DNA from: Burkholderiales bacterium
GTDB lineage: Bacteria; Pseudomonadota; Gammaproteobacteria; Burkholderiales; Casimicrobiaceae
Assembly (NCBI GenBank): GCA_031260355.1
Contig: JAIRJZ010000042.1
Coordinates: 2,855-66,854, forward strand
Direction of reading: 5' to 3'
Length of the DNA stretch: 64,000 nucleotides
The first letter of the stretch is position 1. The number at the start of each line of letters is the position of its first letter. The notes under the pieces were generated by a model. That model ran no database searches. It was not told where the DNA came from and saw only the letters and a list, made by a program, of their open reading frames with translations. Below are positions 3,981 to 54,759 of this stretch, one piece after another. Position numbers and translations under genes: made by a program.

Positions 3981-3988
3981 AAGAAACC

Positions 3989-4016
3989 GTCATTCCGGCG
4001 AAAGCCGGAATCCAGG
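3989..4016 (+). repeat. REP-type palindromic unit R1 (gtcattccggcgaaagccggaatccagg)
   Basis: Perfect hairpin ccggc-gaaa-gccgg with GTCATT/AATCC flanks. The same unit occurs at 4512..4539, inverted at 4402..4430, and as a variant at 48522..48548. Confidence 0.85.
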
Positions 4017-4075
4017 CATATCCAGGACATGTTTCGTCGAAGCGCATAACTTGATATACCTTGTGCTTGAGGCTT

Positions 4076-4378
4076 ATGTCGAGACAACCTTGTGTTTATC
4101 TTCTTGCCAGCGAACGTAATGGAGCGCTATACATCGGCGTCACCTCCAATCTGCTTCAGCGTGTCTGGCAACACAAAGAAGATGTCGTCGAAGGGTTTAC
4201 GCGACGCTACGGTGTGAAAGCACTGGTATGGTACGAGCTGCATGAAACGATGGATTCCGCCATCGCTCGTGAGAAGGCGCTCAAATCATGGAAGAGGTCT
4301 TGGAAATTGCAGTTGATTGAAAACACGAATCCGACATGGGCGGATTTATATCCTTCTTTGCTTGCAGAGCGTCCTTGA
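4076..4378 (+). CDS. Small stand-alone GIY-YIG nuclease family protein (UPF0213/YhbQ-like)
   Basis: MSRQPCVYLLASERNGALYIGVTSNLLQRVWQHK... carries the GIY (VYLL..) and YIG (LYIGVT) motifs. A GAGG sits 4 nt upstream of the ATG. The gene is AT-richer than its neighbours. Confidence 0.85.
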   Translation: MSRQPCVYLLASERNGALYIGVTSNLLQRVWQHKEDVVEGFTRRYGVKALVWYELHETMDSAIAREKALKSWKRSWKLQLIENTNPTWADLYPSLLAERP

Positions 4379-4401
4379 AACTCAAGGAAAAGCTCACGCC
4401 T

Positions 4402-4430
4402 CCTGGATTCCGCCTTTCGCCGGAATGACG
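4402..4430 (-). repeat. REP unit R1, inverted orientation (1 stem mismatch)
   Basis: cctggattccgcctttcgccggaatgacg is the reverse complement of R1. Confidence 0.8.
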
Positions 4431-4511
4431 CGGTTTTTTTACTGCTTTTCTTAATAGCAACAAGGGGCTTTTCTCGACGGCTGGCGTTGTCTAGTGTGCC
4501 GCCATTTCTCC

Positions 4512-4539
4512 GTCATTCCGGCGAAAGCCGGAATCCAGG
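4512..4539 (+). repeat. REP unit R1
   Basis: gtcattccggcgaaagccggaatccagg, identical to 3989..4016. Confidence 0.85.
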
Positions 4540-24613: not shown

Positions 24614-26896
24614 TCACGCCTTGAAAAACTCCGCTTTGTCGCCGAGCCAGCGGTCAATCAACGCGACGGCAGCGGCTTCGCCTTCCTCCGTTTTCAACAG
24701 CCGGTCGGCAACGCGACTGGCGCGTTCGAGTAACGCTTCGTCGCGCTCGGGGTCGGCAAAACGCAGCAACGGCACACCGGCTTGCCGCGCCCCCAGCAAC
24801 TCGCCCGGCCCGCGAATGCGCAAATCCTGACGAGCAATTTCAAATCCGTCGTTATTCTCAAAAATCACTTTGAGCCGCTCTTTGGCCGTCGCGCCGAGAG
24901 GCGTTTCGAACAACAGAATGCACTGGCTTTCGCACGCCCCCCGCCCTACCCTCCCGCGCAACTGATGCAGTTGTGCCAAGCCGAAACGTTCGGCGTGCTC
25001 AATCACCATCGTCGAGGCGTTCGCCACATCGACGCCGACTTCGATTACCGTCGTCGCCACCAGAATATGAATGCCGCCGCGCACGAAAGCTTCCATCGTC
25101 GCCGCCTTGTCCGCCGGTTTCATCCGGCCATGCAGCAAGCCGACCTCAAGTTTTGGCAGCGGCTCGCCTTCTGCCGTTTTATTTTCGCCGTCGAACGCCA
25201 CTACCAATTCTTCATACAGCGTTTGCGCCGCCTGCAAACTGAGTTTTTCCGATTCTTCGATCAGCGGACACACCCAATAGGTCTGTGCGCCGTGCTTTGC
25301 CCCCTTTTGAAAGGGGGTGCCCGCCGAAGGTGGGCGGGGGTTTGTTTCGGCTCCCTTCTCCTCTTGTACCCCATCCCCACCCCAACCCCAACCCTCCCCT
25401 TGAAGGGGAGGGGGTTTGCAGCGCTTGCCGACATGCGCGATGATCTCGGCACGGCGTGCCTGGTTGACCAGCCGCGTCGTTACCGGCATGCGCCCCGGCG
25501 GCAATTCGTCGATCACCGACACATCGAGGTCAGCGTAAAAACTCATCGCCAGCGTGCGCGGGATCGGCGTTGCGCTCATCATCAGTTGGTGCACTTCCTC
25601 GACGCCCGCGCCTCTGTCGCGCAACGCCAGCCGCTGCGCCACGCCGAAACGGTGCTGCTCATCGACGATCGCCAGCGTCAGGTTCGGCATCGTCACGCCT
25701 TTCTGAAACAGCGCATGCGTACCGATCGCTAGCACCGGCTCGCCATCAGCCAGCGTCGCCAACGCTTTTTTGTGCTGCGCTGCCGTCAGCGTTCCGGTCA
25801 GCCACACCAGACGCACCGGCAGACCGGCCAGCCACGCTGACAATTTGTGGTAGTGCTGTTCGGCGAGAATTTCCGTCGGCGCCATCAACGCCACTTGCCT
25901 GCCATTTTCCACCGCCCGCAGCGCCGCCAATGCCGCAATCACCGTTTTGCCGGAGCCGACATCGCCCTGCAACAATCGGTGCATCGGAGCGGCGCGGGCA
26001 AGATCGTCGCCGATTTCTTTCCACACCCGCTGCTGCGCCGCCGTCAACGTGAACGGCAAGCGCTGCAACAAAGCGTCGGTCAACACTTCGCGATGGCTCA
26101 ACGCTTCGGCGCGGCGACCGGCGCGCGCCGCCTTGTGCCGCTTCAGCGAAAGCTGCTGCGCCAACAATTCGTCGAACTTGATGCGTTGCCAAGCCGGATG
26201 CGCGTGCGCTGACAATGCCGCCTGCTCTTCTCCCGACAAACCCGGTGGCGGCGCATGCAAAAAATTCAGCGCCTTCGCCCAATCCCACAAACCCTCCTGT
26301 CGGCGTAAGGCTTCCGGCAAGTCATCGCGCAACACCGTTTCTCGTTGCAGGACTCTCGCAATCTGCTTCGTCAACACCTCTTGCGACAAACCGCCGGTCG
26401 TCGGATAAACCGGCGTTAAGCGGTTAGGCAACGGCACGGCACGGCTTGTTGTTGCGCCCAGCGCCATGAACTTCGGATGCACCATCTCCAAACCGAAATG
26501 GCCGTCGCGCACTTCGCCGAACACGCGCACCCGCATACCAATCGTCAACGCTTTCTGCTGGTTCGGGTAAAACGTAAAAAAGCGCAGCGTCAACGCCGTC
26601 ACATGGTTTTCTTCGCCGCTCTCTATCGCGCAAACCCACTGCCGCCGCGGTCGGTAACGCACTTCGCTCGCCGTCACCACCCCCTCGGTACACACCGACA
26701 TCCCGGCGTGCAATTGCGCCAGCGGCACCCGCGTCGTGTAATCCTCGTAGCGCAGCGGCAAGTGCAGCGCCAAATCCGCTTCATGAACGATACCCAACCG
26801 CGCCAATCGTGCCGCCAGCAAAGAACGCTTGTCCTCACGCGGCTTCGTTACAGGCCGCGTTACTACCGGTGGCGGATGCGAAGTTTCGGTGGTCAT
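24614..26896 (-). CDS. recG: ATP-dependent DNA helicase RecG (carries an in-frame repeat-derived insertion)
   Basis: Wedge domain plus helicase motifs (GDVGSGKT, DEQHRFG, MSATPIPRT, QLRGRVGRG). 760 aa, about 40 aa longer than expected because of the insert at 25295..25420. Confidence 0.93.
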   Translation of the reverse strand: MTTETSHPPPVVTRPVTKPREDKRSLLAARLARLGIVHEADLALHLPLRYEDYTTRVPLAQLHAGMSVCTEGVVTASEVRYRPRRQWVCAIESGEENHVTALTLRFFTFYPNQQKALTIGMRVRVFGEVRDGHFGLEMVHPKFMALGATTSRAVPLPNRLTPVYPTTGGLSQEVLTKQIARVLQRETVLRDDLPEALRRQEGLWDWAKALNFLHAPPPGLSGEEQAALSAHAHPAWQRIKFDELLAQQLSLKRHKAARAGRRAEALSHREVLTDALLQRLPFTLTAAQQRVWKEIGDDLARAAPMHRLLQGDVGSGKTVIAALAALRAVENGRQVALMAPTEILAEQHYHKLSAWLAGLPVRLVWLTGTLTAAQHKKALATLADGEPVLAIGTHALFQKGVTMPNLTLAIVDEQHRFGVAQRLALRDRGAGVEEVHQLMMSATPIPRTLAMSFYADLDVSVIDELPPGRMPVTTRLVNQARRAEIIAHVGKRCKPPPLQGEGWGWGGDGVQEEKGAETNPRPPSAGTPFQKGAKHGAQTYWVCPLIEESEKLSLQAAQTLYEELVVAFDGENKTAEGEPLPKLEVGLLHGRMKPADKAATMEAFVRGGIHILVATTVIEVGVDVANASTMVIEHAERFGLAQLHQLRGRVGRGACESQCILLFETPLGATAKERLKVIFENNDGFEIARQDLRIRGPGELLGARQAGVPLLRFADPERDEALLERASRVADRLLKTEEGEAAAVALIDRWLGDKAEFFKA
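25297..25414. repeat. Repeat units A (25297..25345) and B (25369..25414) embedded in recG
   Basis: A is ttgcccccttttgaaagggggtgcccgccgaaggtgggcgggggtttgt (two hairpins). B is ccccatccccaccccaaccccaaccctccccttgaaggggagggg. B copies occur in intergenic DNA, and an A copy occurs in the mtfA-like gene. Confidence 0.85.
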
Positions 26897-28789: not shown

Positions 28790-29686
28790 ATGAGCCCCAT
28801 TGAAGAACTTCTGACTGTACGTGACTGGCTGCGCTGGGCGGTGTCCCGGTTCAACCAAGCCCGACTGCACTTCGGCCACGGCAGCGACAATGCTTTTGAC
28901 GAAGCCGCCTATTTGATCGCCCACACACTGCCCCTGCCGCTCGAACAACTCGACTCTTTTCTCGACGCCCGATTGACGCAGTCTGAAAAGTTACGGCTTT
29001 GTAAAATGCTGGATCGGCGGGTTGTGGAACGCATTCCCGCCGCCTACCTCACTCAGGAAGCTTGGCTCGGCGATTTTCGTTTTTATGTTGACGAGCGCGT
29101 CATCGTTCCGCGCTCCTTCATCGCCGAATTGTTGCCCGATGGGTTATCGCCGTATCTGCCCGACCACCACGATGTCAAAAACGCGCTCGACCTGTGTACC
29201 GGCTCCGGCTGCCTCGCCATTCTGCTGGCCGTAACGTATCCCGACGCCGAAATCGACGCTGTCGATATTTCACCGGCGGCGCTCGCCGTCGCCCAACGCA
29301 ACATCAGCGACTATGACTTGTCCGGTCGAATTGACCTGATTCGCTCCGATTACACCGACAACCTGCCGAGCGATAAGCGCTACGACCTGATTGTCAGCAA
29401 CCCGCCCTATGTCACCGACGACTCCATGCAAAACCTGCCGCGCGAATACCGCCATGAGCCAGAACTGGCGCTGGCTGGCGGCGTTGACGGCCTTAACGCC
29501 GTTCATCACATTCTGCAAAACGCCCGCCGCCTGCTGCGACCGCACGGCATCGCCGTCGTCGAGATCGGCCACAACCGCGCGCTGGTCGAAGCGGCTTATC
29601 CGCGGTTGCCTTTTGTCTGGCTCGACACCGGCTCGTCGGAAGAGTCGGTCTTTTTGTTGAAGCACGAAGATTTGCCGGAATCGTGA
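28790..29686 (+). CDS. prmB: 50S ribosomal protein L3 glutamine N5-methyltransferase
   Basis: MSPIEELLTVRDWLRWAVSRFNQARLHFGHGSDNAFDEAAYL, SAM motif LDLCTGSGC, and catalytic NPPY. Confidence 0.88.
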   Translation: MSPIEELLTVRDWLRWAVSRFNQARLHFGHGSDNAFDEAAYLIAHTLPLPLEQLDSFLDARLTQSEKLRLCKMLDRRVVERIPAAYLTQEAWLGDFRFYVDERVIVPRSFIAELLPDGLSPYLPDHHDVKNALDLCTGSGCLAILLAVTYPDAEIDAVDISPAALAVAQRNISDYDLSGRIDLIRSDYTDNLPSDKRYDLIVSNPPYVTDDSMQNLPREYRHEPELALAGGVDGLNAVHHILQNARRLLRPHGIAVVEIGHNRALVEAAYPRLPFVWLDTGSSEESVFLLKHEDLPES

Positions 29687-30615
29687 GACCACATCGGTTC
29701 CCACCGATAAAATAACCGGAAGCATTCGTAAACGTCGGGGTAGGTTTCGCGCAAGCGTATCGAAGCAACAAAAAAAGTTTCCGACAACACCGCGAAAAAT
29801 TCCGCCGGATCTTCCGCCGCATAAGGATCAATGTCGAGGTCTTCTTCTGCATCAACGCGCCGGCAAAAATCGTCGTAAGCGCGCTCCATCGTCTGCTGCC
29901 AGTAAGCCGCCGACAATTCCGGCGGCAGCGGCGGGCAACCGTTGGCTTCGCCGTTCTTCATGTCGAGCTTGTGAACAAACTCGTGGATCACAACATTGAC
30001 CGCCGGCATGTCGTACTTTCCTCCCCTCTCCCCTTGGGGGAGGGGAGAGGGGGGAAATGATCGCACCTCCCCCTCTTCCGCCATTGCCCCCTTTTCAAAG
30101 GGGGTGGCCGCCGAAGGCGGACGGGGGTTTGTATCAGGGCACCCTCCCCCGCAAGGTAGGAGGGAATAAATATCACGTTCGCGGCCGGCGTCCAGCGCAT
30201 CCGGCCAGGACAACACCACCGGCCCTCCCGGCATCGCTTCACCCATGATCGGCGCGTCGTCTCGATGGATGACGCCGTCTTCATCTTCCCATTCGGCGTA
30301 GGTGATGAACTCGTCAGGGCACAGCACGACCGTCTCAAAATCGTCGTACCATTCAAGCCCCAATTTCAACACGGGAATACACGCCTGAACGGCCACGACC
30401 GTCCGCTGAAACGGCGTGACCGCGAAACCGCGCGCGCCAACGATATTTTTGTCGCACAAGAACAGCACACTCATCGCGCGCAGTGCTTCCAACTCGCCCT
30501 TCGGCCAATCGGCGAGGAACGGCAACGCCGTCAACGCTTCTTGCCACAACGCTTCCGGAACCGCGTACCGCTGCAAGATCCGCGCGCGGCGCCAGCGGGA
30601 AAAAAGTCCCATCAT
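29596..30615 (-). CDS. mtfA: MtfA-like zinc peptidase (M90 family) with an in-frame repeat-derived insertion
   Basis: HEFVHKLD zinc motif, with conserved PFLADWPKGELEALR and AEFFAVLSETFF regions. The ATG overlaps the rmuC stop. The 3' end overlaps prmB by about 90 nt. Confidence 0.75.
   Translation of the reverse strand: MMGLFSRWRRARILQRYAVPEALWQEALTALPFLADWPKGELEALRAMSVLFLCDKNIVGARGFAVTPFQRTVVAVQACIPVLKLGLEWYDDFETVVLCPDEFITYAEWEDEDGVIHRDDAPIMGEAMPGGPVVLSWPDALDAGRERDIYSLLPCGGGCPDTNPRPPSAATPFEKGAMAEEGEVRSFPPSPLPQGERGGKYDMPAVNVVIHEFVHKLDMKNGEANGCPPLPPELSAAYWQQTMERAYDDFCRRVDAEEDLDIDPYAAEDPAEFFAVLSETFFVASIRLRETYPDVYECFRLFYRWEPMWSHDSGKSSCFNKKTDSSDEPVSSQTKGNRG
30021..30164. repeat. Composite hairpin element (C hairpin 30021..30054, unit A 30084..30132, D hairpin 30140..30164) embedded in the mtfA-like gene
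   Basis: The left and right hairpins match the intergenic composites at 49436, 51353 and 54638. Unit A is about 90% identical to the recG copy. Confidence 0.85.
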
Positions 30616-48452: not shown

Positions 48453-48548
48453 CCTGGATCCCCGCTTGCGCGGGGATGACGCTCAGCGAGAGATCGAGCC
48501 ACAAGCGTTGTATTTTTCTCCGTCATTCCTGCGAAAGCAGGAATCCAG
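48453..48548. repeat. Inverted REP doublet (48453..48481 minus-oriented variant; 48522..48548 plus-oriented variant)
   Basis: cctggatccccgcttgcgcggggatgacg ... gtcattcctgcgaaagcaggaatccag. The flanks are the same but the stems differ. Confidence 0.8.
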
Positions 48549-49435: not shown

Positions 49436-49575
49436 CTCCCCCTCTCCCCCTGGGGGAGAGGGGCCGGGGGAGAGGGGAGAGAAAACAATTGTTCCCCTCT
49501 CCCGCCCCTTTGGGGCACCCTCCCCCGCAAGGGGGGAGGGTAAAAATATCCGCGCTGAAACACGCACATTTGAAA
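49436..49575 (+). repeat. Composite G/C-run hairpin element (C hairpin ... D hairpin ... gcacatttgaaa tail), copy 1
   Basis: ctccccctctccccctgggggagagggg...caccctcccccgcaaggggggaggg. Lies in the modB-modC spacer. Confidence 0.8.
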
Positions 49576-51352: not shown

Positions 51353-51477
51353 CCCCCCTCTCCCCTTGAGGGAGAGGGGCTGGGGGAGGGGGGGGAAACA
51401 ATCCCTTCCCCCCTCTCCCGCCCCGTCGGGACACCCTCCCCCTCGAGGGGGGAGGGTGAAAAGTGTGCGCATTTGAA
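51353..51477 (+). repeat. Composite hairpin element, copy 2
   Basis: cccccctctccccttgagggagaggggctggggga...caccctccccctcgaggggggagggtgaaaagtgtgcgcatttgaa. Lies upstream of modA. Confidence 0.8.
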
Positions 51478-54546: not shown

Positions 54547-54637
54547 AACAGCGAGATAACCGGAATAAGCCGGCGCTCTTGAGTTAGAGCAGTTTTGATT
54601 TAAGCGATTACTCCCTGCGACGGCGAGCAGCACTTCG

Positions 54638-54759
54638 CTCCCCTCTCCCCTTGAGGGAGAGGGGCTGGGGGAGAGGGGTGAAGTTTTCTCTCCCCCTCTC
54701 CCGCCCCTTCGGGCCACCCTCCCCCTCGAGGGGGGAGGGAAAAAGTGTAAGCATTTGAA
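54638..54759 (+). repeat. Composite hairpin element, copy 3
   Basis: ctcccctctccccttgagggagaggggctgggggagagggg...caccctccccctcgaggggggagggaaaaagtgtaagcatttgaac. Confidence 0.8.

Follow-up and report, generated by a model that had tools for sequence, protein, structure and literature searches.

Short repeats that lie inside bacterial genes and are read as part of them are known from several systems. Rickettsia palindromic elements (RPE) are mostly selfish repeats of ~100-150 bp, and numerous housekeeping genes that are unrelated to one another contain them in frame (Ogata et al. 2000 Science 290:347 and 2002; PMC10969869, PMC3733652). They have preferred frames, a conserved peptide and fold-compatible positions, and in some families nearly half of the copies are inside genes (PMC10969869, PMC3733652). 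Of the REPs, which carry a GTAG/CGTC tag, a minority is found inside ORFs, at positions that encode loops or linkers, and genes for replication and repair stand out among the hosts (Di Nocera et al. 2013, PMC3733652). MITEs, ERIC and QMITE1 among them, give in-frame translational fusions (review PMC10969869).

The case described here comes from a window of 64,000 nucleotides (the whole stretch of DNA that was analysed, whose numbering we use) of a Burkholderiales genome. A GC-rich repeat is found there in frame in an mtfA-like peptidase gene, shortly before the codons of the HEXXH zinc site. Such behaviour is already known from RPE and REP elements; the lineage, the mosaic build and the loss of host codons are different, and so, probably, is the sequence. 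Like RPE, the repeat family is a multicopy palindromic element of ~100-150 bp that occurs in frame in unrelated genes, with biased frames and in fold-compatible loops, in a small-genome host-associated bacterium. Unlike RPE, it belongs to termite-gut Burkholderiales, in a different phylum, its sequence is probably unrelated, and it is a mosaic of 25-nt C-rich hairpins with a nested 47-nt unit, which we call unit A, whereas an RPE is one unit. Several frames are used here and one in RPE; the genic fraction is ~7% of clusters, against nearly half for some RPE families; and in mtfA the repeat has replaced host codons. The likeness to intragenic REPs lies in short GC-rich stem-loops that are mostly extragenic and seem to serve as IS targets, and in repair and replication hosts, here RecG, UvrD and a PD-(D/E)XK nuclease. 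As in MITEs, full-length members of the family carry TIR-like outer arms and have no coding capacity, and the intragenic copies would be translational fusions. In contrast to MITEs, the mtfA copy lacks TIR-like arms and a target-site duplication, has microhomology at a junction and has cost the host some sequence.

The host gene lies on the minus strand at 29596..30615 and encodes 339 aa, including the repeat-derived loop; around the repeat its translation reads ...RERDIYSLLPCGGGCPDTNPRPPSAATPFEKGAMAEEGEVRSFPPSPLPQGERGGKYDMPAVNVVIHEFVHKLD.... The product belongs to Peptidase M90, matching PF06167 (Pfam) with 261 bits against a gathering cut-off of 26.2 (E 1.4e-77), and the insert splits this match into two stretches. 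It shares the fold and the HEXXH zinc site of MtfA from Klebsiella pneumoniae (PDB 3dl1/3khi) and E. coli (9srw). In a sequence alignment to 3dl1, residues 21-143 correspond to chain positions 18-139 and residues 201-309 to 140-250. The 57 residues that are extra compared with the Klebsiella protein all fall at one point just before HEFVH, between chain positions 139 and 140. This zinc-binding and catalytic motif (H211-H215, 29971..29985, minus strand) occupies invariant columns of a 68-sequence alignment and begins 10 residues past the last repeat-derived residue. The score against the DgsA anti-repressor MtfA equivalog (NCBIfam PRK15410) is 166.5 bits, under the cut-off of 400. Hence we name the gene an M90 peptidase, which on these matches it is, and imply no role as Mlc titration factor.

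The stop codon of rmuC and the start codon of mtfA overlap as ATGA at 30612-30615. This overlap suggests translational coupling of the two genes and, as a feature of the sequence, puts mtfA in an operon context. At the other end of the gene the usual stop has been lost, with TGG in the window where a congener (L002) has TAG. A C-terminal read-through of 27 codons plus a stop codon (29596..29679, minus strand), unique to this genome in the comparison with congeners, follows. It is antisense to the 3' end of a convergent prmB-like methyltransferase gene, and the two ORFs overlap by 91 nt (29596..29686). C-terminal tails of MtfA homologues are variable across the genus. We did not find mtfA in two congeners, G004 (96% complete) and G008, and the gene may be dispensable in the genus. 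The first of these two genomes also has the heaviest repeat load.

In a DNA alignment with five congeners, the unambiguously repeat-derived part of mtfA is 159 nt, or 53 codons (30013..30171; residues 149-201, IYSLLPCGGGCPDTNPRPPSAATPFEKGAMAEEGEVRSFPPSPLPQGERGGKY). We describe the repeat and all its modules on the plus strand; the mRNA of mtfA bears the reverse complement. On the left there is a remnant of an outer arm (30003..30022), which the profile matches from model position 8 and which agrees with the arm of another copy (C64:1018-892) at 16 of 18 bases. Part of this stretch, 30003-30012 (CCGGCATGTC), fits both the element arm and the ancestral mtfA codons for D-M-P, where congeners read GAYATGCCGCC. 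Comparison of repeats then identifies the left C-rich hairpin with its G-box (CTCCCCTCTCCCCTTGGGGGAGGGGAGAGGGG, 30021..30052), translated PPSPLPQGERGG, and a spacer separates it from unit A (47 nt, GCCCCCTTTTCAAAGGGGGTGGCCGCCGAAGGCGGACGGGGGTTTGT, 30086..30132), which is read antisense as TNPRPPSAATPFEKGA. The sequence of this unit A equals the family consensus, and three other copies share its top nhmmer score (E 2.5e-15). The right hairpin (CACCCTCCCCCGCAAGGTAGGAGGG, 30140..30164), translated LLPCGGGC, belongs to repeat family D7 and is 89% identical to 49513-49550. It is followed by a remnant of the right arm (AATAAATAT, 30165..30173), seen in the repeat comparison, the congener alignment and the profile. 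The only overlap on this side is ATC at 30172-30174, common to the repeat arm and the ancestral Asp codon of RERD.

A sequence-only reading of this DNA had described a full composite inserted in frame, with unit A, just upstream of the HEXXH motif of an M90/MtfA gene. On the location, the ORF, PF06167, the 3dl1 alignment and the profile agree. The sequence and the open frame between 30021 and 30164 are as that reading gave them, with 53 repeat-derived codons in all. Its identification of the hairpins with modules of the composites near 49.4, 51.4 and 54.6 kb is borne out by repeat search and profile, and the coordinates above place unit A between the two hairpins, as it had said. The words "full" and "inserted" need to be narrowed: the modules of the composite are present, but only as its core. 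The TIR-like outer arms (GCGGTTTTGRTTCAAATGC...) are absent save for a left remnant of ~20 nt and a right one of ~8 nt, and an ancestral loop has been replaced. Two features are private to this copy: its G-box is shortened, and its right hairpin contains a GGTAGG variant. Its junction sequences are unique, being found in no other repeat copy. The corresponding mRNA segment is predicted to fold with -88.7 kcal/mol (z -3.05); a search of both strands of the insert for a terminator-like site gave none. Since at least four of the six frames are open across the element, openness of the frame is weak evidence when taken alone. Tryptic peptides predicted from the insert region include GAMAEEGEVR, SFPPSPLPQGER and ...PPSAATPFEK.

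Other copies in the window match these modules. When the 51.3-kb composite was made into an nhmmer profile, it aligned over 30003..30173 (E 2.7e-16), and repeat search links 30001-30055 and 30137-30174 to the composites 49417/49513, 51333/51429 and 54618/54712. These three composites are intergenic and in plus orientation, at 49436..49550, 51353..51466 and 54637..54749, all three being supported by repeat search and profile. The mtfA copy is matched most closely by the right hairpin and arm of the first; the right hairpin recurs there at 49516..49540 with 2 mismatches, where 0 matches are expected in shuffles. Unit A of mtfA is linked at 90% identity to 25297-25348, within a second in-frame copy (unit A plus hairpin, 25297..25420, plus strand) that repeat search and Pfam place in a minus-strand recG.

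The source genome is a 2.1-Mb MAG of 88 contigs with 57.8% GC, in which mtfA lies on a 68-kb contig, and its closest relatives are termite-gut Burkholderiales MAGs. It contains 20 copies of unit A and 168 repeat clusters, with 246 profile hits to the composite when both strands are counted. There are 183 hairpins with the C-arm first (CCCTCTCCC-loop-GGGAGAGGG) and 10 of the mirror type. Apart from the source genome, the repeat is present in eight of its 11 congeners, the three without it being the most distant ones. In 29 genomes of other genera it is essentially lacking, so that among the 41 genomes compared the hairpin repeat is, by its sequence distribution, genus-specific. Its best match in Rfam has 22 bits, where gathering scores are 38-90, and only chance hairpin matches were found.

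What did the site look like before the repeat arrived? Comparison with relatives, which the sequence-only reading had proposed, gives a direct answer: all 17 nearest homologues (247-292 aa) have a segment at this site and none has the repeat. The segment is an acidic loop of 10-26 residues, variable in length and sequence, between RERD and (D/E)M-P-VNVVIHEF (for example SDEMDDETLLDVLEDGSEEALEDE). We considered whether the loop of the congeners might itself be a decayed repeat copy and ruled this out, as it has no DNA similarity to the repeat and no hairpins. An ML tree built from the flanks places the window protein within the acidic-loop proteins; hence the acidic loop is ancestral and was lost afterwards. 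In the DNA alignment with the five congeners the codons of the loop are gone and the 159 nt of repeat stand in their place, with junctions at 30012/30013 and 30171/30172, while the profile alignment from 30003 to 30173 overlaps ancestral codons. Altogether 13-24 ancestral codons were lost and 53 gained with the frame kept. On this alignment the event is a replacement of the loop by the repeat, not a simple insertion. A strongly acidic loop has thereby been exchanged for a near-neutral one. MtfA of Klebsiella and of E. coli has no such acidic loop. No second insert-bearing MtfA was found among 5.8 billion clustered proteins, where the 339-aa form is unique.

The entry of the repeat would probably have been one microhomology-guided recombination or template switch, and not cut-and-paste transposition. 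The left junction lies within ~10 nt of microhomology, and the mtfA copy is flanked by no target-site duplication and does not combine such a duplication with terminal inverted repeats, as a MITE would. The genome has, at C83:126083-126196 (91% identity), another composite with unit A already nested in it, so that a single event would be enough to produce the mtfA copy.

There is no stop or frameshift in the ORF, and all 53 columns that are invariant in the 68-sequence alignment are kept, H211, E212 and H215 included. AF2 models the core with pLDDT >90 and residues 153-201 with pLDDT <50 and no secondary structure. The best fold matches of the model are 3dl1 (TM 0.85, rmsd 2.6 Å) and 3khi (TM 0.82). 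Thus in structure modelling, another suggestion of the sequence-only reading, the MtfA fold stays intact and the insert is disordered. The acidic loop of a congener (P0007) is likewise a low-confidence coil in its predicted model. Because both the insert and the congener's loop are predicted to be disordered, the site would be a disordered linker in all of these proteins. The same reading had suggested dN/dS on the flanks. It is 0.08-0.11 against the five congeners and 0.10-0.115 among the congeners themselves; but dS is ~1 (saturated), so that pairwise dN/dS and branch length have no power to see relaxation since the insertion. With the same proviso, the terminal branch of the ML tree is 0.085 long and the root-to-tip distance of 0.638 is inside the range of 0.54-0.74. 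Given this dS and a unit A identical to the consensus, the insertion may be recent, and over such a span tests of selection are powerless.

We know other examples of the repeat inside genes of the same genome. Eleven of the 168 clusters are in frame within coding frames and 157 are intergenic; this census used a homology-free codon-usage model trained on this genome, and the count of 11 is conservative. Pfam identified ten of the hosts: MtfA, RecG, UvrD, TilS, PepN, an ABC ATPase, a 929-aa PD-(D/E)XK nuclease, LysE, EarP and a YgfZ-like protein. The inserts of TilS and LysE are in variable loops and that of the ABC ATPase is in the linker between its NBDs. The largest genic insert seen is in UvrD (G000:C33:29355-32087), where at least four repeat modules make up ~100 aa in frame in a variable linker before the ...FLTHAALEAGD... 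segment. TilS is essential in model bacteria. At 100 loci of seven congeners, 17 of 127 unit A copies are genic and in frame. The TilS loop contains an antisense unit A in the source genome (G000:C47:3162-3208) and one or two sense copies in G001 (L151) and G009 (L175); in G002 (L204) it has no unit A and reads YQPSGKATPALWRP. In the ABC-ATPase linker there are different modules in three species. Judging by these differences in content, the same two loops have been colonised independently in different species.

The frames in which the genic copies are read are not random. We classified 21 independent genic copies of unit A by hand, by reading of the central hairpin, and obtained RPPSAAT eight times, SAFGGH seven times, WPPKADG and VAAEGGR three times each, and VRLRRP and GRRRRT never (chi-square 16.4, df 5, p ~0.006). 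The two frames without a count are the Arg-rich ones, and in some genic copies of unit A internal indels skip them. The DKPPSAFGGHPLSKGG peptides correspond to frame r3 of a loop variant and not to r1. For the C-rich hairpin the ...PLPQGERG... frame is predominant without being exclusive, with seven of about twelve genic copies. The mtfA copy reads each of its modules in the commonest frame. Since the frames are not random across genic copies, this pattern supports translation of the inserts and their filtering at the level of the peptide, and would favour tolerance over decay.

What has to be explained, then, is a set of observations: the anatomy of the copy, the replacement of the loop, the retention of every invariant residue, the disorder predicted for the insert, the parallels in the genome and the frame bias. 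We think it likely that the repeat core is a tolerated and translated replacement of a disordered loop, in a peptidase that most likely still functions. A GC-rich palindromic repeat would have overwritten a variable, disordered acidic loop ahead of the HEXXH helix, the copy being the core of a MITE/REP-like composite with left hairpin, spacer, nested unit A and right hairpin. The insert would be transcribed and translated in vivo as a Pro/Gly-rich, near-neutral, disordered loop. If the site is a permissive surface linker, it follows that the insert would be tolerated, with the fold and catalytic residues intact and the enzyme presumably active. The sequence-only reading had offered an active enzyme or a still-open pseudogene as the two possibilities, and the evidence leans towards a tolerated insertion without settling the choice. 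An inactivated gene is in our opinion unlikely, though it deserves to be taken seriously. In such a case a needed acidic loop was destroyed, or the hairpins block translation, so recently that stops have yet to accrue. The allele is known from one MAG, the insert ends just 10 residues ahead of the HEXXH histidine H211, and an acidic loop that is present in 17 of 17 close homologues may matter. However, this loop varies between 10 and 26 aa, is predicted to be disordered and is missing from Klebsiella and E. coli MtfA; the invariant residues are all intact and the branch is not accelerated. A very recent event, which a unit A identical to the consensus would allow, would nevertheless be invisible to dN/dS. 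Loss of the native stop with its 27-aa read-through might also be read as decay, although C-terminal tails vary in the genus anyway. The absence of mtfA from G004 and G008 means that its loss can be tolerated, and an RNA structure of -88.7 kcal/mol could hamper translation. Against this, the frames of the insert are those favoured in other insert-bearing genes, including the one for TilS.

A beneficial exchange of loops would be a different matter. The Pro/Gly-rich peptide might alter gating, auto-inhibition or partner binding, with TNPRPPSAATPFEKGA and PLPQGERG acting as a shared functional module. The insert does adjoin the active-site helix, a strongly acidic loop did give way to a near-neutral one, and identical peptide frames do recur in unrelated proteins. 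Yet removal of Arg-rich or stop-containing frames is a simpler cause of the frame bias, the hosts are functionally unrelated, and their inserts are in linkers predicted to be disordered. With 157 of 168 clusters intergenic and the mtfA insert conserved in no other genome, we regard adaptation as very improbable. The chance that the mtfA of this MAG is a product of short-read assembly, in which a repeat copy was threaded into the gene, is in our view smaller still. It is true that the allele is on a single MAG contig, that no second contig or strain with it was found, that neither a junction 30-mer nor a flanking 30-mer had an exact match when metagenome contigs were scanned, and that repeats break other contigs of the same assembly. 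But the contig is 68 kb long, its mtfA flanks are in frame with each other as the two halves of one gene, and the junction sequences are unique and not common to other copies. The copy has its private G-box and GGTAGG variants, and a mis-join would not remove the acidic loop precisely and in frame.

If the replacement is tolerated and translated as we propose, this bacterial lineage is the second, after Rickettsia, whose housekeeping proteins repeatedly contain translated selfish DNA of palindromic type. The lineage is that of a small-genome termite gut symbiont, and frame selection and the repeated use of permissive loops are visible in the data. The junction ahead of the HEXXH helix in MtfA would accept anything from 10 to 57 extra residues, which could be useful for engineering or tagging. 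For annotation there is a warning: Pro/Gly-rich segments such as PLPQGERG and TNPRPPSAATPFEKGA in proteins from such MAGs are repeat DNA and not domains. A more speculative suggestion is that the repeats enter genes not by transposition but through microhomology-guided overwriting of disordered linkers, and that in different species they return to the same loops (those of TilS and RecG and the linker of the ABC ATPase). They would then generate loop diversity across the lineage, filtered by peptide selection, with mtfA as a fresh example. We consider so general a scheme rather doubtful. If correct, the repeat family would be a source of loop diversity in housekeeping proteins, and the mtfA event, beside a catalytic site, would have been caught before further change.

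Several other mobile or repeated elements occur in the same genome. Another short repeat, GTCATTCCGGCGAAAGCCGGAATCCAG, has three copies in the window (3982-4538, 48515-48548); it constitutes family D10 and is distinct from the C-rich hairpins. There are three Y1_Tnp genes for RAYT-like transposases (G000:C79:1592-1930, C79:2727-3065 and C1:25604-25942), each bracketed by inverted GTAG-type REPs of two families (GGTAGGTTGGGATGAGC... and GTAGGGTGGGCA...) that are separate from the C-rich hairpins. Mobilisation of the mtfA repeat family by RAYT was considered and rejected, given that these genes are bracketed by other REP families and that the C-rich hairpins, unlike intragenic REPs, have no GTAG/CGTC tag. 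Nine contig ends (G000 C8:26032, C11, C24, C44, C57:17413, C62, C67, C69:7513 and C74) stop within a multicopy IS whose terminal repeat (TGTACAGACTCGACACATAGGTAAC...) is 49 nt long. At all nine the IS end adjoins the middle of a C-rich hairpin of the repeat family; from these junction sequences the IS appears to target C-rich hairpins and to break the assembly there.
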